Numbered from the stretch's first letter, positions 134-6,856 are shown. The stretch: DNA of 6,856 nucleotides from a virus (IMGVR_UViG_2675903433_000039:1-6856); one strand, 5' to 3'. Notes: generated by a model from the letters alone, not told the origin. Translations and numbers: made by a program.

Positions 134-1204
134 TTATTTGATTTCAATTTTGTCCCACTCCCTGCCTCTGTCATCACGATACTGTGATGCCATGGTGTCC
201 GACTTATGCCCGAGAAGATGTTGAGCAAACTTATCGCTTATCTGCTTCTCATAGAGTCTTGCAGACAAACTGCGCAACTCGTGAAAGGTCGGCGGATCCC
301 CTTCGAAGGAAAGACCTGATGCTTTTCGTGCGCGCATAAAATACCTTGATACTGTGCCGGATGAAAGCGGTTCACGATGAGTAGATGCAATTATGGTTTC
401 TCCGCCAAGAATCTCTTTGCATTTATCAAGTGTTTCCTTCATTGATATCCCGAGAGCATCAACATGCAATGTTGTAGGGATGGCAATTTTTACGCCTGTT
501 TTGCTTTGCTCGACATAAAGATATCCATCTACGATATCAGACCACTTCATTTCGCATAAATCACCAACTCGCTGCCCGGTAACAACAGCCAGCTCCATTG
601 CAAGTCTTAGCCAACATGGTGATGATTCTGCTGCTTGATAAATTTTCAGGTATTCGTCAGCCGTAAGTCTTGATCTCCTTACCTCTGATTTTGCTGCGCG
701 AGTGGCAGCGACCGGGTTTGTTGTTATATGGCCTTCAGCTATTGCCTCTCGGAATGCATCGCTCAGTGTTGATCTGATTAACTTGGCTGACGCCGCCTTG
801 CCCTCGTCTATGTATCCACTGAGCATTGCCGCAATTTCTTTTGTGGTGATGTCTTCAAGTGGAGCATCAGGCAGCCCCCTCCTTATTGCTTTAATTTTGC
901 TCATGTAATTTATGAGAGTCTTCTGCTTGATTCCTCTGCTGGCGAGGATTTTTTCGTAGCGATCAAGCCATGAATGTAACGTAACAGAATTATCACTGTT
1001 GATTCTCGCTGTCAGAGGCTTGTGTTTGTGTCCTGAAAATAACTCAATGTTGGCCTGTATTGCTTCAGTGATTGCTATCCTCCTGTCTCGGCCTAATCCA
1101 AACTCTTTACCCGTCCTTGGGTCCCTGTAGCAGTAATATCCATTGTTTCTTATATAAAGATTAGGGGGTAAATCCCGGCGCTCATGACTTCGCCTTCTTC
1201 CCAT
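134..1204 (-). CDS. int: Tyrosine site-specific integrase, lambda Int
   Basis: 356-aa ORF whose translation (MGRRRSHERRDLPPNLYIRNNGYYCYRDPRTGKEF ... HLLGHKSDTMASQYRDDRGREWDKIEIK) matches lambda Int as I recall it, including the C-terminal catalytic region (HxLR ... Y in SQYRDD). Adjacent to attL and overlapping xis by 23 nt as in lambda. Confidence 0.97.
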   Translation of the reverse strand: MGRRRSHERRDLPPNLYIRNNGYYCYRDPRTGKEFGLGRDRRIAITEAIQANIELFSGHKHKPLTARINSDNSVTLHSWLDRYEKILASRGIKQKTLINYMSKIKAIRRGLPDAPLEDITTKEIAAMLSGYIDEGKAASAKLIRSTLSDAFREAIAEGHITTNPVAATRAAKSEVRRSRLTADEYLKIYQAAESSPCWLRLAMELAVVTGQRVGDLCEMKWSDIVDGYLYVEQSKTGVKIAIPTTLHVDALGISMKETLDKCKEILGGETIIASTHREPLSSGTVSRYFMRARKASGLSFEGDPPTFHELRSLSARLYEKQISDKFAQHLLGHKSDTMASQYRDDRGREWDKIEIK

Positions 1205-1400
1205 TTCTGATCCTCTTCAAAAGGCTACCTGTTACTGGTCGATTTAAGTCAACCTTTACCGCTGATTCGTGGAACAGATACTCTCTTCCATCCTTAACCG
1301 GAGGAGGGAATATCCTGCATTCGCGCACCCATCGACGAACTGTTTCAAGGCTTCTTGGGCGTCGCTGGCGTGCATTCCACTCCTGAAGTGTCAAGTACAT
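1182..1400 (-). CDS. xis: Excisionase, lambda Xis
   Basis: 72-aa ORF MYLTLQEWNARQRRPRSLETVRRWVRECRIFPPPVKDGREYLFHESAVKVDLNRPVTGSLLKRIRNGKKAKS matches lambda Xis from memory. Its 3' end overlaps the int start by 23 nt. Confidence 0.95.
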   Translation of the reverse strand: MYLTLQEWNARQRRPRSLETVRRWVRECRIFPPPVKDGREYLFHESAVKVDLNRPVTGSLLKRIRNGKKAKS

Positions 1401-1521: not shown

Positions 1522-1719
1522 CTCGCTGATTCTCCTGTAAGTCTCTGGTGCTTTGTTTCCGTGTATCTTCATTTCGGCGCATGGGCTTGTAGCGCGTGTC
1601 ACGATGAAATCGACCGACGCACCCATAACCTCGACAACAAAGACGCCAGACTTTACCACCTCGAAGGCGTGATCAGGACGCAGGCGATACTGCTGAAGGA
1701 GGGGAAGATTAAGTCATGA
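1522..1719 (+). pseudogene. 3' remnant of a truncated nin-region gene upstream of rusA (no credible start codon)
   Basis: An open frame runs from the stop at 1519-1521 to a TGA at 1717-1719 that overlaps the rusA ATG (ATGA coupling). It reads ...VYLHFGAWACSACHDEIDRRTHNLDNKDARLYHLEGVIRTQAILLKEGKIKS*. It has no ATG and no Shine-Dalgarno at its 5' end, consistent with a gene truncated at a deletion or recombination junction. Identity not established. Confidence 0.3.
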
Positions 1720-2078
1720 ACGAATATCAGTTTGTGCTTCCATACCCGCCGTCGGTGAATACCTACTGGCGAAGACGGGGAAGCCAATACTACATCAGCG
1801 ATAAAGGCCAGAAATACCGAAAAGACGTTCAGCAAATCATCCACCAACTCAAGTTAGATATTTTCACCAAATCACGACTCCGCATCAAAGTAATCGCAGA
1901 CGTTCCAGACTCCCGCCGCCGCGACCTAGATAACATCCTGAAGGGTTTACTCGACTCCCTTATCCATGCCGGATTTGCGGAAGACGACGAGCAATTCGAT
2001 GACATTCGCGTAATTCGTGGTGTGAAAGTACCAGGCGGACGGCTTGGAATAAAAATCACCGAACTGGAGAACGCATGA
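1716..2078 (+). CDS. rusA: Holliday junction resolvase RusA (lambdoid nin-region endonuclease)
   Basis: 120-aa ORF with RusA hallmarks shared with E. coli K-12 RusA as I recall it: N-terminal LPYPPSVNTYW (K-12: LPWPPSNNRYY), the RRRDLDN motif with catalytic Asp residues, and C-terminal GGRLGIKITE. Same length as K-12 RusA. Good RBS (aggagg/ggaag) upstream; the stop overlaps the next ATG. Confidence 0.9.
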   Translation: MNEYQFVLPYPPSVNTYWRRRGSQYYISDKGQKYRKDVQQIIHQLKLDIFTKSRLRIKVIADVPDSRRRDLDNILKGLLDSLIHAGFAEDDEQFDDIRVIRGVKVPGGRLGIKITELENA

Positions 2079-2263
2079 ACGCCACAATTCAAACGATACC
2101 AGAGCTTCTTATCCAGACACGAGGCAATCAGACCGAAGTGGCGAGGATGCTTTCCTGCGCAAGAGGAACAGTGCTCAAGTACAACCGAGACAGCAAAGGC
2201 GAGCGTCATGTAATAGTTAACGGCGTCCTGATGGTCAAACAGGGCAAGAGGGGAAGACGATGA
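2075..2263 (+). CDS. ninH: NinH-like small DNA-binding protein (nin region)
   Basis: 62-aa ORF MNATIQTIPELLIQTRGNQTEVARMLSCARGTVLKYNRDSKGERHVIVNGVLMVKQGKRGRR resembles lambda NinH as I recall it (..KTIPDML..YGNQTEVARRL.CSRGTV.KY..D..G..H.IVN.VLMV..). Translationally coupled to rusA (ATGA). The C-terminus diverges from lambda NinH just before the low-GC insertion. Confidence 0.75.
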   Translation: MNATIQTIPELLIQTRGNQTEVARMLSCARGTVLKYNRDSKGERHVIVNGVLMVKQGKRGRR

Positions 2264-2391
2264 GACTCGAAAGCGTAGCTAAATTTCATTCGCCAAAAAG
2301 CCCGATGATGAGCGACTCACTACTGGCCACAGTTTATTGGTTTTCGTAACTGAGTCATTTTATTATTTTATTGCAACTTTTAATCTTTTAT

Positions 2392-2428
2392 AGTGCGAAA
2401 TAAATGGAGCTGGCATTCATTTCGCACT
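2392..2428 (+). terminator. Perfect 10-bp inverted repeat (agtgcgaaat / atttcgcact) with a 17-nt loop, followed by a T-rich tract; possible terminator of rightward nin transcription
   Basis: Arms at 2392-2401 and 2419-2428 are exact reverse complements. ttatgtttttgttgg follows on the plus strand. The loop is long for a canonical intrinsic terminator, hence the low confidence. Confidence 0.3.
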
Positions 2429-2474
2429 TTATGTTTTTGTTGGACTTATGTTATTTTGATTGAATTCAATTCAG

Positions 2475-3434
2475 TTAAAAAAAGAAGGTGATTGCTCCAT
2501 TTATAAATGAATAGTCATCCCCTGTCTTGAATTCTGATGTTACTTTATTAAATGCTAGTGTGAAGGCTACAGGTGCATACCCAATTGTTGCGCCAACTTG
2601 ATATTCATCAACAGTTTTGTTTAGCGATACTGTTGTTTGTTTCGTCTGTATTGTTTTTCCTTCGAGAGTATAGTTGCGATTGACATCTCGTCTTTCCATA
2701 CCTGCAAAAATCTTGTATTTGAATCCGCTTGTATCGGACATATGCATTAAACCACGGGGAGCCAGCAGACCAAAGCCATTATCCGAATTGAAGGTTTTAT
2801 CATTACCAATGGCAATGGTTGCGCCATATGCTACATATTGAAATAAGTTTCCAGTAACAGCAGAAACTTCAGGGTATAATCCAACATTAGCACCTAAAAT
2901 ATCCATACTTGGTGTCATGGATAGCATCCCTTTTACAGTATAACCGTAGCGATTCTCTATTTGATCATCCCATGCATGATATTTTTCTGCCCCAATAATC
3001 TCATGAGCTTTATTTTGTACTTTCTGACCGCCTGCGTCGGGGCCAACAACACCTATGTCAGTACCTAATCGATAGCGAATCCAGTCATTCGCAAGGGAGT
3101 TCCATTCAATACCAGTGTGAGTGTATGCACTAAAAGCTCTGTCTCCAGTTACAGCTGTGTTGTGTCTTTTATTACTGCCTGATGGAGAGTAAATATCTTG
3201 CGCAATATGGAGAGATAATTGGCTCGAGTCTGAGATATCGTGGCTATATCCCAGAAATAAGCCTTGTGAGTAATCATCTCTGTTTTCATGTTTATTGCCA
3301 TAAATATCATTAAGTATTGGTTGAAACTTCCCTGCATCATCATTTGCTAATGATAATGCAAGGCTGTTCGCGATAGCTGAACACGTGGTAAATGACAGAG
3401 CAATAAAGACGCCAGCGATGACACTTTTTTTCAT
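2475..3434 (-). CDS. lpxR: Outer-membrane lipid A 3'-O-deacylase LpxR (beta-barrel, signal peptide); prophage accessory gene
   Basis: 319-aa ORF with an N-terminal signal peptide (MKKSVIAGVFIALSFTTCSAIA) and a C-terminal aromatic ...ITFFF typical of outer-membrane beta-barrels. Length and sequence character match Salmonella LpxR and its E. coli O157 prophage orthologue as I recall them. RBS GGAAG lies 10 nt upstream of the ATG. Low GC relative to the flanking phage genes. Confidence 0.7.
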   Translation of the reverse strand: MKKSVIAGVFIALSFTTCSAIANSLALSLANDDAGKFQPILNDIYGNKHENRDDYSQGLFLGYSHDISDSSQLSLHIAQDIYSPSGSNKRHNTAVTGDRAFSAYTHTGIEWNSLANDWIRYRLGTDIGVVGPDAGGQKVQNKAHEIIGAEKYHAWDDQIENRYGYTVKGMLSMTPSMDILGANVGLYPEVSAVTGNLFQYVAYGATIAIGNDKTFNSDNGFGLLAPRGLMHMSDTSGFKYKIFAGMERRDVNRNYTLEGKTIQTKQTTVSLNKTVDEYQVGATIGYAPVAFTLAFNKVTSEFKTGDDYSFINGAITFFF

Positions 3435-3720
3435 ATGTTATTGTCTTCCTTTTTTTTGAATGGTGCGCGTATTTTACATACATGAGTTTGTAATACAAGG
3501 TGCGTAATCAATATGATGTTTTATAATTGCGTGAGACAATTGATTTATTCGTTTTTTATTGCGGTTTTTATTATCTTTTAATGTAACGGTGTTTTTATTA
3601 AGTGTGTTTGCGTGGTGTTTTATGTTTTTTATAATTTTTATTTTATTAAATTTAAAAGCATTAGTAATGGCTATTCTATATAGCAATATAAGAACTGTTA
3701 CAAAAAAAGGGGGGGCAATT
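3435..3720. promoter_or_regulatory. AT-rich, T-tract-phased (probably intrinsically curved) upstream region of lpxR; likely promoter and silencing region
   Basis: Very AT-rich intergenic DNA with T-runs recurring at roughly helical spacing between about 3550 and 3650. Lies directly upstream of the lpxR start (minus strand) and divergent from the Q-like gene. Confidence 0.3.
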
Positions 3721-3909
3721 ACAGGTAGTTATGGATGATGAGTGAAACAGATATTGGAGAACCGGGGAATGAATGATGTCTGAGTCTTATATATCAGAAC
3801 TCCTTCGCTGTCGCTGGGGGCTCCTGTGCTTATGTCGTTTCCCCGATTCGGTTTTGAACGATTACCGAATGTTGAAGAATTATGCCAAAATATAGAAAGG
3901 ATTTACTGC

Positions 3910-4599
3910 ATGAATACCCAATATTTACAGTATGTTCGTGAGCAACTTATGGCAGCTACTGCTGACTTGAACGGAGCAACGAAAGGCCAGCTCGAAGCCT
4001 GGCAGGAGCATGCACAATTTGATACTGGTACATACAAACGAAAGAAGCCGCGCATTCTGGATGTGGTAACTGGCAAGATGATTACGCTGGATAATACGCC
4101 GACTTCCGGTAAGCAGTCGTACGCAAAAGGTTCATCCATTGCTTTGGTCAGCCCGGTTGAATTCTCAACCTCTTCATGGCGCCGCGCGGTTTTGTCTCTC
4201 GATGAACATCAGAAAGCATGGTTGCTTTGGTGTTACAGCGAAAGCGTTCGATGGGGGCATCAGGTCACCATAACGCAATGGGCATGGAGCGAGTTTAAAG
4301 ATTTGTTAAGTAACAGAAAAATTGCAGGTAAGACACTGGATCGCCTGAAGACGTTAATCTGGCTGGCTGCACAGGATGTGAAGAGCGAACTTGCAGGGCG
4401 TGAGGCCTATGAATACCAGACACTGGCATCATTGGTGGGAGTGACAACAAAAAACTGGTCCGAGACATTTACTGAACGCTGGGTTGCAATGAAGCACATT
4501 TTTCTACAGCTTGATAGTGATGCTTTATTGCTTGTGACGAGAACACGTTCAAAACAAAAGGCAGCATTTTTACAGCAAAATATTGCAAAACTGGATTAA
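3910..4599 (+). CDS. Putative late-gene antiterminator Q (large Q-like family of lambdoid prophages); the longest ORF starts at 3826
   Basis: Located between the nin genes and the lysis cassette, where Q sits in lambdoid phages. The ~230-257 aa size is consistent with the large Q variants annotated in E. coli prophages. The ATG at 3910 has a good RBS (aaagga, 8 nt spacer); the upstream in-frame ATG at 3826 has a weaker one. Assignment is by position and general resemblance, not verified by search. Confidence 0.55.
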   Translation: MNTQYLQYVREQLMAATADLNGATKGQLEAWQEHAQFDTGTYKRKKPRILDVVTGKMITLDNTPTSGKQSYAKGSSIALVSPVEFSTSSWRRAVLSLDEHQKAWLLWCYSESVRWGHQVTITQWAWSEFKDLLSNRKIAGKTLDRLKTLIWLAAQDVKSELAGREAYEYQTLASLVGVTTKNWSETFTERWVAMKHIFLQLDSDALLLVTRTRSKQKAAFLQQNIAKLD

Positions 4600-4647
4600 A
4601 AGCCATATACTTCATGCAAATTTGGTATGTTGTAAAAAATGTATAAA

Positions 4648-4671
4648 CCCGCTGCCGAGTGGGTTTTTTTT
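4648..4671 (+). terminator. Rho-independent terminator-like hairpin ~50 bp downstream of the Q-like gene
   Basis: Stem cccgct (4648-4653) / agtggg (4658-4663) with one G-U pair, loop gccg, followed by a run of 8 T (4664-4671). An A-tract upstream (aaaaaatgtataaa) could make it bidirectional. Confidence 0.5.
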
Positions 4672-4743
4672 ATGCCCTGAGTTGTACTTGTACGGTAAAC
4701 ATGCTGGCTGCTATGTAATAGAGTTTTTTTAGCCTGTAACCTC

Positions 4744-4773
4744 TTGACGGCATTGAATTGCTTTTGTTATGAG
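4744..4773 (+). promoter_or_regulatory. Sigma70-like promoter candidate upstream of the membrane-protein gene (possible late promoter pR' or moron promoter)
   Basis: TTGACG (4744-4749), a 17-18 bp spacer, then TTATGA/TATGAG. The spacer contains ATTGAA at the same position as in lambda pR' (TTGACTtATTGAA...) as I recall it. A tandem TTGTAC TTGTAC repeat at 4682-4693 lies just upstream. Confidence 0.3.
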
Positions 4774-4810
4774 TTGTAAGCCAATGTTATCATCTTGTAT
4801 TGGGGTGGTT

Positions 4811-5527
4811 ATGAAGGATGGTGCGCTGCTCAGGAGTTCTTCACTTTTTATTGCCTACATGGGATGCCTTGGATGGGGGAGTGCTTATTTCTATGGATGG
4901 GGTACTTCTTTTTACTACGGCTTCCCATGGTGGATTGTAGGTGCAGGTGTTGATGATGTTGCCAGAAGTTTATTTTTTGCAGTTATCGTCATTGCTATAT
5001 TTCTTATCGGTTGGGGTATTGGTGTTGTATTCTTTTTCGCAGTGAAAAGAAAACATTCTATGCAAGAGCTAAATGTATTTCGCCTTTATTTTGCTGTGGA
5101 ATTATTGTTTGTGCCGGCAATTATTGAGTTTTCTATATTGAGACAGAAGATTCAGGTACCTCTTTTGCTACTGTCAGCAGCGATTGCGCTGGCGGTTACA
5201 ATTTCGATAAGATCTTATGGGCGATTTTTATCGGTATCATGCTTCTATGATAAGCCATTTATAAAAAAACATTTTTTTGAGATTGTGATGATTGCTTTTG
5301 TGGCATATTTTTGGCTTTTTTCATTTCTGACAGGATATTACAAACCACAGTTTAAGAAAGAATATGAAATGATTAATTATAATGATGGTTGGTATTATGT
5401 TCTTGCTCGTTATGATAATTGTCTGGTTTTGTCTACTTCTTTCAATGCAGGTAGTAAAAGGTTTGTCATTTATCAATCAGCACAAGATAAGAATCTTCAG
5501 GTTGATATTGTAAGGACCAGAATTTAA
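4811..5527 (+). CDS. Uncharacterised integral membrane protein (about five predicted TM helices plus a ~60-aa C-terminal soluble domain); low-GC accessory gene
   Basis: Long ORF (maximal 4769-5527; alternative starts at 4769, 4784 and 4811, with gggg/ggtgg upstream of 4811). Hydrophobic segments include FAVIVIAIFLIGWGIGVVFFFAV, LYFAVELLFVPAIIEFSIL, LLLLSAAIALAVTISI and FFEIVMIAFVAYFWLFSFLTGYY, with an aromatic/Gly-rich N-terminal segment (GWGSAYFYGWGTSFYYGFPWW). Codon usage is AT-rich compared with neighbouring phage genes. No family recognised. Confidence 0.7.
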   Translation: MKDGALLRSSSLFIAYMGCLGWGSAYFYGWGTSFYYGFPWWIVGAGVDDVARSLFFAVIVIAIFLIGWGIGVVFFFAVKRKHSMQELNVFRLYFAVELLFVPAIIEFSILRQKIQVPLLLLSAAIALAVTISIRSYGRFLSVSCFYDKPFIKKHFFEIVMIAFVAYFWLFSFLTGYYKPQFKKEYEMINYNDGWYYVLARYDNCLVLSTSFNAGSKRFVIYQSAQDKNLQVDIVRTRI

Positions 5528-5660
5528 TTGGCTGCATAAATAATATTTTAAGTTGCAAGTTGGCTATTCGTAGGAATAGAACCTTAGGCATGCTGAATGC
5601 GTTTTCTGAACATTGTTTTATAAACTGTGTCTGCTTGCTGTTGTGATCCTGCTTTTAGTG

Positions 5661-5771
5661 ATGGTGATGATGGATTTCACCAGCAGGATAATGTTGGTAC
5701 TGACTGATGGCGCTCTGGTCTGCGGCATTGTGGTATTGCTGTGGCCGATGATGAAAGAACAGAATGAATAA
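5661..5771 (+). CDS. Hypothetical 36-aa hydrophobic micro-protein (MVMMDFTSRIMLVLTDGALVCGIVVLLWPMMKEQNE)
   Basis: Short ORF with one predicted TM segment, ending 3 nt before the -35 of the downstream promoter-like element. It has no obvious Shine-Dalgarno and contains the rare AGG-ATA codon pair, so coding status is uncertain. Confidence 0.2.
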   Translation: MVMMDFTSRIMLVLTDGALVCGIVVLLWPMMKEQNE

Positions 5772-5774
5772 TTC

Positions 5775-5803
5775 TTGACTTTTTTGTTTACTGTTTATTA
5801 AAA
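5775..5803 (+). promoter_or_regulatory. Late-promoter-like element (pR' candidate): TTGACT -35, ~17 bp spacer, A/T-rich -10
   Basis: TTGACT at 5775-5780, then a 17-bp spacer and TTAAAA (or TATTAA with a shorter spacer). An intrinsic terminator lies about 175 nt downstream and the holin start about 410 bp beyond that, a geometry like the lambda pR'-tR'-S arrangement as I recall it. Confidence 0.35.
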
Positions 5804-5957
5804 AATCAACCGCATGGTGAATCCTCCTTGGAGGGGCTAAATGATCGAGTTTTAAGGGCACGTAGCGAGTTCTGTTTGATCATTGCAGAACTTAGCGGGA
5901 GGCGCCATGCGTACATCACTAATGTTATTTCCTTCTATCATTTTCCTTGTGAGTTCT

Positions 5958-5984
5958 GGCTGCGCATGGCGCGGCCTTTTTTTT
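5958..5984 (+). terminator. Rho-independent terminator (tR'-like) in the late leader
   Basis: GC-rich stem ggctgcgc (5958-5965) / gcgcggcc (5969-5976) with one G-U pair and a short loop, followed by 8 consecutive T (5977-5984). Confidence 0.55.
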
Positions 5985-6173
5985 ATGACCTGCCACTGGC
6001 AGATGGTCATCCTGTGATTTGATTCCGGTTCCGGCTTTTTAACTCTGTTCCTGTACACGGGAGAAATTCTATGTCGATTAATCGTTATGATATTGGTTAC
6101 AAGAAGTACCACGTATTGTGTTGAGATAGAAAGCATGGTGCCAGAGGTAAATGCAGCAGCATAATAAAAAAGA

Positions 6174-6213
6174 GCCAGCGCAGAAGAGAACGGGTAAAAG
6201 AGTCTGCGCTGGC
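6174..6213. repeat. Perfect 11-bp inverted repeat (gccagcgcaga / tctgcgctggc) with an 18-nt loop, adjacent to a second small GGGG/CCCC hairpin
   Basis: Arms at 6174-6184 and 6203-6213 are exact reverse complements. On the minus strand the structure is followed by ctcttttttattat, so it could act as a minus-strand terminator. ggggatattcccc follows at 6216-6228. Confidence 0.4.
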
Positions 6214-6329
6214 GTGGGGATATTCCCCGTGGAGAAATGATATGTAACACACATCGGGAACCTTTCTATATAAACATTATCATTATTGTCAATCATAACA
6301 GTCAGGTATTATGACGTTTATGCATCAGG

Positions 6330-6360
6330 GCCATCAGGAATTAACTGGTGGCTTTTTATT
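6330..6360 (+). terminator. Terminator-like hairpin 35 bp upstream of the holin start
   Basis: Stem gccatcag (6330-6337) / ctggtggc (6345-6352) with one G-U pair, loop gaattaa, followed by tttttatt (6353-6360). Confidence 0.45.
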
Positions 6361-6392
6361 GTTGTCAGCTTCCGGATAACGGGAGACGGGGT

Positions 6393-6608
6393 ATGTACCA
6401 GATGGAAAAAATAACAACAGGTGTGTCATACACCACGTCAGCGGTGGGGACGGGATACTGGCTACTGCAGTTGCTGGACAAAGTCTCCCCATCCCAGTGG
6501 GTGGCAATAGGCGTATTGGGTAGCCTGGTGTTTGGCTTGCTGACGTATCTGACAAACCTTTATTTCAAGATTAAAGAAGATAAGCGTAAGGCTGCGAGAG
6601 GTGAATAA
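6393..6608 (+). CDS. Phage-21-type holin (pinholin, S21/EssD family) with dual-start motif
   Basis: Translation [71 protein letters not shown] closely resembles S21/EssD as I recall them (..[44 protein letters not shown]). RBS gggaga upstream. Met1 and Met4 form the holin/antiholin dual start. The ORF track extends the frame upstream to 6348, but that start has no RBS. Confidence 0.92.
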
Positions 6609-6856
6609 TGTCGCCATCATTACGCAAGGCTGTTGCTGCTGCTATTGGTGGTGGGGCTGTTGCCATAGCGTCTGTGCTCATCACTGGTCCGAGTGGTGAC
6701 GATGGCCTGGAAGGTGTCAGCTACATACCATACGAAGATATCGTTGGCGTATGGACTGTATGTCACGGACACACCGGAAAAGACATCATTCCCGGTAAAA
6801 CGTATACCAAAGCAGAATGCAAAGCACTCTTGAATAAAGACCTTGCCACTGTCGCC
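6608..6856 (+). CDS. SAR endolysin (phage-21 R-type lysozyme), 5' partial; continues past the window end
   Basis: The ATG at 6608 overlaps the holin stop (TAATG). Translation [83 protein letters not shown] matches the N-terminal signal-anchor-release domain and start of the lysozyme domain of R21/RrrD as I recall them. Open to the end of the window. Confidence 0.9.

Follow-up and report, generated by a model that had tools for sequence, protein, structure and literature searches.

A probable orphaned late-regulatory and lysis module in a phage-434-like prophage after a recent early-region deletion

The DNA analysed was a viral stretch of 6,856 nucleotides (IMGVR_UViG_2675903433_000039:1-6856; hereafter the window, with positions counted from its first letter), and it proved to be part of a lambdoid prophage at att-lambda, adjoining ybhC. 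The region is most plausibly the part of a phage-434-like prophage that governs late transcription and lysis, orphaned by a recent deletion of the early region, probably still competent and probably silent. That its genes are intact is explained by the recency of the deletion and not by any demonstrable retention. Features along the window were as follows:

1574..1575, no strand: deletion junction, where an orf remnant downstream of xis is fused to the C-terminal 52 codons of ybcO
2260..2331, plus strand: lambda-type Q remnant, N-terminal 24 codons (RefSeq 'antitermination protein, incomplete' in relatives)
2392..2440, plus strand (that of Q): terminator-like hairpin ending in a U-rich stretch, located past the nin genes and before Q (−16.4 kcal/mol, z = −3.3)
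2475..3434, minus strand, antisense to Q: lpxR moron of the lipid A 3'-O-deacylase family (PF09982, E = 7e-40)
3773..3895, plus strand: ylcG-like small gene directly upstream of Q (phrog_2705; RefSeq and phage 434 annotation)
3910..4599, plus strand: phage-82-type antiterminator Q (229 aa; PF06323, phrog_304)
4583..4611, plus strand: late promoter pR', overlapping the stop codon of Q (TTGCAA, 17 nt, TATACT)
4623..4631, plus strand: sigma70-dependent pause-inducing element, extended −10-like (TGgTATGTT)
4645..4675, plus strand: tR' intrinsic terminator (9-bp stem, 4-nt loop, T run)
4784..5527, plus strand: 247-aa membrane protein in moron position (phrog_1521; precomputed PF27470 label)
5613..5771, plus strand: TciB-like DUF3927 small membrane protein (PF13064, phrog_1470; 'TciB' in the phage 434 annotation)
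5958..5985, plus strand: second terminator-like hairpin (8-pair stem with 7 G-C pairs, then T8; phage 434 terminator annotated here)
6327..6362, plus strand: third terminator-like hairpin, just upstream of S (z = −2.5)
6393..6608, plus strand: S21-type pinholin, 71 codons from ATG 6393, with a 68-codon form from ATG 6402
6608..6856, plus strand: SAR endolysin of the R21/RrrD type, 5' part, first 83 of about 165 codons (PF00959)

The window lacked the whole immunity, N and replication region (cI, cro, pR, nutR, N, O, P). The join at 1574/1575 was clean, with 2 bp of microhomology (TC) and no repeat, as is typical of illegitimate deletion. To its left, positions 1–1575 matched the int-xis side of the UTME-9 prophage at 100% identity, and to its right positions 1574–6856 matched the ybcO-to-endolysin side of the same prophage at 99.8%. 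Between these two arms lie ~4.6 kb in UTME-9 and ~13 kb in phage 434, the latter including cI, cro, N, O, and P. The first-pass annotation had reported the immunity region absent, and the match of both arms to UTME-9 across the junction bears this out. Nine differences from UTME-9 were counted in 5,283 bp, only one of which fell within Q, S or R, and it was synonymous. A search of 5,426 complete E. coli genomes returned 0 occurrences of the junction, and it was also not found in GTDB representatives, IMG/VR or JGI metagenomes. Given this private junction and the near-zero divergence from live phages, the deletion is, judged from sequence, private and recent. With so little divergence, intact open reading frames are expected under neutrality and selection is not needed to explain them. 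A separate remnant of a lambda-type Q (2260..2331), whose phage 434 counterpart is labeled 'antiterminator-like protein, lambda Q N-terminal fragment', is a leftover where the lpxR-ylcG-Q82 block was inserted.

The Q protein matched the Pfam profile PF06323 (Phage_antiter_Q) over positions 1–216 of 220 (E = 1e-91) and phrog_304 with E = 2e-108, and was identical to phage 434 Q at 229/229 residues and to phage 82 Q at 203/229. The full-length profile match upholds the earlier view of this gene as intact, with a correction to its start, which had been set at 3826. Translation starts at ATG 3910, with AAGGA 8 nt upstream, as in phages 82 and 434 and in the RefSeq annotation. GTG 3826 was rejected as a start; it overlaps ylcG, and the annotated start is ATG 3910. 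Upstream of Q, sigma70-like matches were not above shuffled sequence (5 found vs. 7.5 expected). Because the deletion took pR and N along with cI, Q is left without a known promoter and is probably silent. 'Repressor-less' here means promoter-less for Q, not de-repressed. The AT-rich stretch 3435–3770 contains one TTGTAA, 18 nt, TATGAT match (3488–3517) and could hold a weak promoter.

In active lambdoid phages, RNA polymerase initiating at pR' is held near +25 by sigma70 contact with a −10-like element, and a phage-82-type Q modifies the paused polymerase, which then reads through tR' and the hairpins downstream. In an alignment of four Q82-type loci, the pR' hexamers and spacing were kept in all, as was the TGnTAT..T motif of the pause element, with conservation falling off just downstream. 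If +1 is taken as 4618, the pause element sits at +9 to +14 and the pause is predicted at +25 (T4642), a geometry that would agree with the published phage 82 pR' (PMC5001585). The tR' hairpin folded at −15.8 kcal/mol (z = −2.6), a phage 434 terminator is annotated at the same place, and the predicted tR'-terminated leader is ~55 nt. Q, promoter, pause element and tR' are base-for-base those of viable phage 434, and antitermination by this Q at its own pR' is predicted on that indirect ground. The likeness to phage 82 pR' covers the hexamers, the extended −10-like element at +9 to +14 and the T at +25, whereas the discriminator (+15 to +17) is GTA in the window and phage 434 vs. GCC in phage 82 and its closer kin, and beyond about +16 the window and phage 82 are unrelated. 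In phage 82, changing GCC to AAA made the pause about five times shorter (PMC5001585); pausing strength may thus differ from that of phage 82, though phage 434 is viable with GTA.

Between Q and S lies an interval of 1.8 kb, with three terminator-like hairpins, the gene for the 247-aa membrane protein and the TciB-like DUF3927 gene. Homology to known proteins and to phage DNA indicates that these genes are not chance open reading frames. The 247-aa protein is identical to its phage 434 counterpart and is frameshifted in two of six relatives at ybhC.

The S product matched PF04971 (P21 holin S) with E = 1e-32. Its first transmembrane domain (residues 7–27) was weakly hydrophobic, with a mean hydropathy of ~0.4 and 55% Gly/Ala/Ser/Thr, while the second (residues 36–53) was strongly hydrophobic (mean 2.3), and the family match together with this pairing marks an S21-type pinholin. 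The allele is identical in O157:H7, O55:H7, UTME-9 and Z1323, and one residue separates it from phage 434 S68. An intact pinholin with a dual start had been proposed. The profile match and the two ATGs, at codons 1 and 4 with the spacing of S21 71/68 and DLP12 essD, agree with this, but the extension between them reads Met-Tyr-Gln, vs. Met-Lys-Ser in DLP12 essD, and carries no basic residue, whereas the antiholin of dual-start pinholins needs an extra N-terminal positive charge (PMC9636201). In phage 434 and many relatives codon 1 is ATA, and the phage 434 S has one start only. Folding detected no structured 5' RNA element at the S dual start (z = 0).

The endolysin gene starts at 6608 in a TAATG overlap with S and runs past the window end after 83 codons. 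These 83 residues were identical at 77/83 positions to both RrrD (4ZPU) and the phage 21 lysozyme whose crystal structure is 3HDE. By published criteria for SAR segments and the E-X8-D-X5-T lysozyme motif (PMC9239132), they contain basic R6 and K7 followed by a Gly/Ala-rich segment at 8–25 (61% Gly/Ala/Ser/Thr), and the catalytic triad E35, D44, and T50. The 5' region can therefore be called intact, as first described. The 3' part of the gene and Rz/Rz1 lie outside the window, the cassette being read here to codon 83; in UTME-9, the closest relative, the endolysin gene is complete (165 codons) and Rz and Rz1 are present.

With Q and its cis elements as in phage 434, a pinholin one residue off and the endolysin motifs kept, the module is potentially functional, as the first-pass annotation had it. 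In an active phage with this layout, polymerase would pass tR' and two further hairpins and transcribe S, R and Rz/Rz1. Once the inner membrane is depolarised by the pinholin, the tethered SAR endolysin is released, refolds and cuts the wall, and spanins open the outer membrane. Here, an illegitimate deletion removed cI and cro together with pR, nutR, N, O and P, and Q also sits behind a terminator-like hairpin and antisense lpxR. By default, pR' would be expected to fire constitutively, yielding the short terminated leader, with the lysis genes silent. A phage-82-type Q supplied in trans by a co-resident or infecting phage could activate the module, which alternatively might be reused through rescue by recombination.

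Prophages with a complete cI-cro-cII-O-P set and the same right arm are in circulation (L014, L016, L017, L018 and L022). Among relatives at ybhC, the early region has been lost via different junctions, at least seven, and lpxR-Q was kept always. S, R and Rz are intact in five of the six relatives at this site, in which structural genes are often damaged, and the sixth, E105, has lost S-R-Rz and kept lpxR and Q. Intact S-R-Rz beside damaged structural genes is also what selection on the cassette would give.

Two accounts invoke selection in place of recency. The first, improbable in our estimate though the better of the two, is that selection acted on lpxR and perhaps on other lysogenic-conversion genes (tciB, the gene for the membrane protein), with Q and the lysis genes retained as flanks that are harmless without pR and N. 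The LpxR, Q and TciB proteins are 100% identical in phage 434 and all six relatives, E105 included, and lpxR-Q outlasted each of the early-region junctions; this lipid A deacylase is also described as highly conserved in EHEC (PMC6863877). Full identity may, however, just reflect the recent spread of one phage type, and the frameshifts in the 247-aa gene, which is located within the block, mean that the block is not protected throughout.

The second is domestication, which the first-pass annotation had read from the retention of the lysis genes, with the host controlling Q-S-R-Rz for autolysis, vesicles or biofilm, as reported for DLP12 of E. coli K-12. We regard this as slightly less probable still. 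The layout is DLP12-like (int, xis, early deletion, ybcO-rusA-ylcG, Q, moron, S21-type holin, R21-type lysozyme, Rz/Rz1), of which the window itself shows the immunity loss along with Q, S and R as far as codon 83, and in DLP12 the cassette reportedly influences biofilm and vesicle formation and answers to the DLP12 Q, RpoE and Hha (PMC7918800). The intact S, R and Rz in five of six decayed relatives also favor it, as does an allele dN/dS below 1 (Q 0.2–0.4, S 0.02–0.12, R 0.08–0.4). These ratios, however, compare alleles that diverged in the circulating phage pool, and since immunity-intact versions exist they are uninformative on selection after inactivation. The private junction, the one synonymous difference in Q, S and R, and the loss of S-R-Rz from E105, which kept lpxR and Q, do not describe long retention under purifying selection after inactivation. 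Moreover, pR, nutR and N are gone, a Q promoter is not evident (sigma70-like matches at or below chance), the window Q and quuD are of different families, and upstream of S the window shares no homology with DLP12. As the Q family differs and the S upstream DNA is unrelated, DLP12 regulation is not transferable. Domestication is therefore unsupported here, and nothing shows that the host adopted the genes. A third account, that the int-xis/ybcO junction is an assembly or sequencing artefact and the real prophage has more early region, perhaps with a repressor, is very improbable: the junction was seen nowhere else in the collections searched and both arms match UTME-9-type sequence almost perfectly, but the form of the join is that of a true illegitimate deletion, and cI is already missing in UTME-9, the nearest relative on both arms, in all six ybhC relatives examined and in a further ybhC prophage (L015), so that even a false join would give no reason to expect a repressor.

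Phage 434 (OL657226.1) has the same order of lambda-Q remnant, minus-strand lpxR, ylcG, Q82-type gene, pR'/tR', 247-aa gene, TciB, pinholin and endolysin. It is 100% identical to window 3710–5921 (ylcG, Q, pR', pause, tR', 247-aa gene, tciB), 99.3% identical to 2250–6095 and 99.8% on the int-xis side. Unlike the window, phage 434 has cI, cro, N, O and P, being complete and viable, and its TciB and S genes are separated by a 1.85-kb SASA esterase gene that is missing here (breakpoint 6095/6096). The two also differ in their S-R alleles, which share 94% identity, and in the nin region, where phage 434 has ninG and a phosphatase and the window has ybcO-rusA-ninH.

DLP12 of E. coli K-12 (quuD, nmpC, essD, rrrD, rzpD/rzoD) is likewise a defective lambdoid prophage that has lost its immunity region by deletion. 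It shares ybcO-rusA-ylcG, a Q gene, a Q-S moron, a two-ATG S21-type holin and an R21-type SAR lysozyme, and also has spanins; S is identical at 59/71 residues and the first 83 endolysin residues at 77/83. However, quuD (127 aa) is of a type unrelated to the phage-82-type Q of the window, DLP12 is integrated at argU and not att-lambda, and there is no homology upstream of S between the window and essD. Host-level roles of DLP12 have experimental evidence (PMC7918800), whereas the window element is known from sequence alone.

The ybhC prophage of E. coli O157:H7 and O55:H7, which we take to be Sp3/CP-933K, occupies the same site, and its lpxR, Q, 247-aa, TciB and S proteins are 100% identical to those of the window. 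It likewise has no esterase gene, its immunity/replication region is deleted, and S, R and Rz are intact. It differs in its junctions (bet'|ninE in O157:H7; int'|IS3|ninB in O55:H7) and its nin genes (ninG and phosphatase), and keeps more structural genes than the window. In O157 Sakai, all 11 lambdoid prophages keep Q and the full lysis set; Sp3 and Sp8 do so without CI and Cro, Sp3 also without replication genes (PMC2669165). A repressor-less lambdoid prophage that keeps Q and its lysis genes is thus ordinary and already known, from DLP12 as well as from O157 Sp3 and Sp8.

The window comprises one end of a lambdoid prophage at att-lambda, and ybhC adjoins the integrase side in close relatives. 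The following features were identified (positions in the window):

134-1204, minus strand: int, lambda-type
1182-1400, minus strand: xis
1574/1575: deletion junction
right of the junction: ybcO (last 52 codons), then rusA, then ninH
2260-2331, plus strand: remnant of a lambda-type Q, 24 codons
2392-2440, plus strand: hairpin with a U-rich tail
2475-3434, minus strand: lpxR
3773-3895, plus strand: ylcG
3910-4599, plus strand: complete Q
4583-4675, plus strand: promoter, pause element and terminator
4784-5527, plus strand: 247-aa membrane protein
5613-5771, plus strand: TciB-like DUF3927 gene
5958-5985 and 6327-6362, plus strand: two more terminator-like hairpins
6393-6608, plus strand: pinholin (S)
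6608 to the window end, plus strand: SAR endolysin (R), first 83 codons

The two arms of the window were matched to the prophage of E. coli UTME-9, its nearest relative. Positions 1-1575 correspond to the int-xis side of that prophage with 100% identity, and positions 1574-6856 to its ybcO-to-endolysin side with 99.8% identity (9 differing positions in 5,283 bp, a single one of which lies within Q, S or R and is synonymous). The arms meet with 2 bp of microhomology, and the interval missing between them holds, in phage 434, exo, bet, gam, kil, cIII, N, cI, cro, cII, O, P and ren. The immunity region is therefore absent, as the first-pass annotation had stated. Patterns of 52 and 30 nt across the junction had no match in GTDB representative genomes, IMG/VR or JGI metagenomes, and no megablast match to any of 5,426 complete E. 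coli genomes spanned the junction. Exact look-up of three junction-spanning ORFs returned no record, and none of the ten contexts returned for RusA contained the 1574/1575 junction. The prophage is an ordinary, recently truncated 434-like element whose late and lysis module (Q, late control elements and lysis genes) is intact but orphaned.

A profile search placed Q in PF06323 over its full length (E = 1e-91). The protein is identical to that of phage 434 and shares 203 of 229 residues with phage 82 Q, which bears out the earlier call of an intact gene. No PDB sequence match for Q was found. Its start is the ATG at 3910, matching phages 82 and 434 and RefSeq. A GTG at 3826 was rejected as the start, as this codon lies within ylcG and all homologues begin at the ATG equivalent to 3910. 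In an alignment of four loci with a phage-82-type Q, a promoter overlapping the Q stop (TTGCAA, 17 nt, TATA(C/T)T) and an extended -10-like element (TGnTAT..T) 20 bp 3' of it were conserved, and conservation fell off just 3' of the latter. With +1 placed at 4618, the inferred start site, the pause element occupies +9 to +14 and +25 is a T, a geometry that agrees with that published for the sigma70-dependent pause of phage 82 (PMC5001585). Positions +15 to +17 (4632-4634) are GTA in the window and phage 434, whereas they are GCC in the other two loci, PhiR47_2 and an E. coli prophage. GCC at these positions is required for the long pause in phage 82 (PMC5001585), and GTA in its place suggests that pausing at the 434-type late promoter pR' may be weaker or tuned differently. 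The terminator following the pause element folds at −15.8 kcal/mol, and the phage 434 annotation places terminators at the equivalents of the late terminator tR' and of the 5958 hairpin.

A scar lies upstream of Q (2260-3895). It begins with 24 N-terminal codons of a lambda-type Q (MRLESVAKFHSPKSPMMSDSLLAT), followed by the plus-strand hairpin with a U-rich tail, reverse lpxR, ylcG and the complete phage-82-type Q. This arrangement suggests that the lpxR-ylcG-Q82 block took the place of most of an earlier Q gene, and the same scar was seen in phage 434 and all relatives examined.

The holin matched the phage 21 holin family in a profile search and has the two membrane segments expected of an intact pinholin, the first weakly and the second strongly hydrophobic. 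The first-pass annotation had also described an intact dual start, and this held in part. ATG codons are indeed present at positions 1 and 4. The case for a functional pair is weaker: the N-terminal extension is Met-Tyr-Gln, which carries no charge, as opposed to the Met-Lys-Ser of the comparator, essD of DLP12 (a cryptic prophage of E. coli K-12), and in lambda S and S21 the antiholin form is defined by an additional positive charge (PMC9636201). ATA replaces the first ATG in viable phage 434 and many relatives, and fold analysis gave no signal of an sdi-like or other 5' RNA structure at the S start. Three N-terminal variants coexist among near-identical alleles (window 6393-6404; comparison loci L003, L006, L011 and L013-L018): MYQM, with two ATGs and no charged residue; IHQM, with ATA and a single start; and MKSM, that of DLP12, with two ATGs and a Lys. 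The upstream start is thus not a conserved trait of this allele group.

The endolysin fragment shares 77 of its 83 residues with both RrrD and the crystallised lysozyme of phage 21, and carries basic residues, a Gly/Ala-rich SAR segment and the E-X8-D-X5-T triad, so the 5' region of R is intact as reported. The rest of R (the last ~82 codons) and the spanin genes Rz/Rz1 lie beyond the window end and are intact in UTME-9.

Between Q and the holin, several smaller observations were made. The 247-aa membrane protein sits between tR' and the lysis genes, the slot occupied by stx in Stx phages; tRNA genes, which Stx phages carry between Q and S, were not found there or anywhere else in the window. 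The protein had no match in the Pfam copy searched and bears the precomputed label PF27470 'TfpB', and in UTME-9 and E105 its gene has a frameshift at an A-run near 5263. The small DUF3927 membrane protein (5613-5771) is TciB by the phage 434 annotation, and the PHROGs text for its family reads 'TciB-like inhibition of cell division or resistance to colicin'. Literature searches on tciB and TfpB returned only unrelated topics. Owing to a one-base indel at 5928, a 132-aa ORF is open on the minus strand (5852-6250), a RefSeq hypothetical protein; in phage 434 and UTME-9, which lack the indel, a 62-aa plus-strand 'membrane protein' (~5828-6022) is open instead. Only one of the two ORFs can be real, and neither had a family match above threshold.

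Lysis control in lambdoid phages is established biology (PMC9636201, PMC9239132). In an active phage, transcripts from pR, carried by N through the nin region, would supply Q, which would join polymerase paused at pR' and enable it to pass tR' and the hairpins beyond and so to transcribe S, R and Rz/Rz1. The pinholin would then collapse the membrane potential, releasing and activating the SAR endolysin, and the spanins would complete lysis. In the window, the deletion removed pR, nutR and N along with cI. On the strand of Q, the upstream region now consists of int-xis and lpxR in antisense, three nin genes and a terminator-like hairpin, and sigma70-like matches upstream of Q were no more frequent than in shuffled sequence. 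By default this prophage would produce a short terminated leader from pR' and leave its lysis genes unexpressed. Judged from sequence, the module is probably transcriptionally silent, and with pR and N gone as well as the repressor, Q would have been silenced rather than released. Q free of control would be expected to lyse the cell that carries it. Other lambdoid phages can still draw on orphaned modules of this kind as a reservoir, by trans-activation or by recombination.

Six prophages at the same ybhC site in other E. coli were compared, including that of O157:H7, which we take to be Sp3/CP-933K. All six lack the immunity region, with different junctions; a further locus is listed with them:

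O157:H7: bet'|ninE
O55:H7: int'|IS3|ninB
O103:H2: int|dam'
UTME-9: orf'|IS3|ren'
E105: orf'|IS3|ninG'
Z1323PEC0012: a further, different join
comparison locus L015: the eighth junction if that of the window is included

In various E. coli lineages the immunity and replication region has thus been lost, with at least seven or eight distinct junctions (L001, L002, L007, L010, L011, L012, L015 and the window); IS3-family elements are present at four of these ybhC junctions. Such a series of independent deletions at one att site may be of use for studies of prophage decay. lpxR and Q were kept in every ybhC prophage examined, and Q, LpxR and TciB were 100% identical in all six relatives. S, R and Rz were intact in five of the six; in E105 the whole lysis cassette is gone, with lpxR and Q still present. 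Keeping the cassette is therefore common, not obligatory. The same ybcO-to-Q arm occurs with a complete cI-cro-cII-O-P region in five other prophages (L014, L016, L017, L018 and L022), which shows that the module is part of a phage type still in circulation. At least 80% of window 3770-6856 is present in approximately 324 of the 5,426 complete E. coli genomes.

The proposal that retention of the module suggests domestication found no support, given a junction absent from the collections searched, the loss of the cassette in E105, a DLP12 precedent that does not transfer and the weakened case for a dual start. DLP12 has the same architecture, but its Q belongs to another family and the DNA upstream of its S has no homology to the window's, so its regulation cannot be carried over. 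So few mutations have accumulated since the split from an intact phage that open reading frames are uninformative on selection. Values of dN/dS among alleles were below 1 (Q 0.2-0.4, S 0.02-0.12, R 0.08-0.4); these were rejected as evidence of domestication because the alleles diverged among circulating phages, and the ratios are silent on the period after inactivation. It is very unlikely, in our estimation, that the module is more than debris, a retained pR'-lysis unit serving the host and fired either in trans, by phage-82-type Q from a lambdoid phage that infects or already resides in the cell, or by a host stress signal. The pattern behind this reading is that the lethal early region was deleted at least seven independent times with lpxR, Q, pR' and usually S-R-Rz left intact. 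If true, a trans-fired unit would act as a suicide or release device, with early lysis resembling abortive infection, and firing by host stress would be as proposed for DLP12. A prophage that has decayed only recently should not be called domesticated on the strength of an intact lysis cassette without post-deletion evidence, and the preferred reading remains that of a recently truncated prophage with an orphaned module.

Phage 434, which is viable, temperate and carefully annotated, is the best reference for this module, with a nearly identical late region. Window 2250-6095 is 99.3% identical to it, and there are zero differences over 3710-5921, so a working phage has exactly the same bases throughout Q, pR', the pause element, tR' and the genes for the 247-aa protein and TciB. 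The window diverges from phage 434 at 6095/6096, and similarity resumes at the holin (94% identity). A 1.85 kb SASA-family carbohydrate esterase gene separates TciB from the holin in phage 434, O103:H2 and several other relatives; this gene is absent from the window, O157:H7, O55:H7, UTME-9 and Z1323PEC0012, which have ~300 bp of different sequence there (6095/6096 to 6398). The exact S allele of the window is common to the ybhC prophages of the latter four strains, and the defective prophages of O157:H7 and O55:H7 encode the same proteins with another deletion. DLP12 and the Q/pR' system of phage 82 are also among the closest known objects. Asadulghani et al. reported that each of the 11 lambdoid prophages in O157 Sakai retains Q and a full lysis set, among them Sp3 and Sp8, in which CI and Cro are missing (PMC2669165), and the DLP12 cassette has published roles in biofilm and vesicle production (PMC7918800). 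With these reports, both the object and the idea are already in the literature, and the module carries little weight as a discovery: phage 434, DLP12 and the O157 Sakai pool between them already provide descriptions of its genes, of how they are regulated and of their retention in repressor-less lambdoid prophages.
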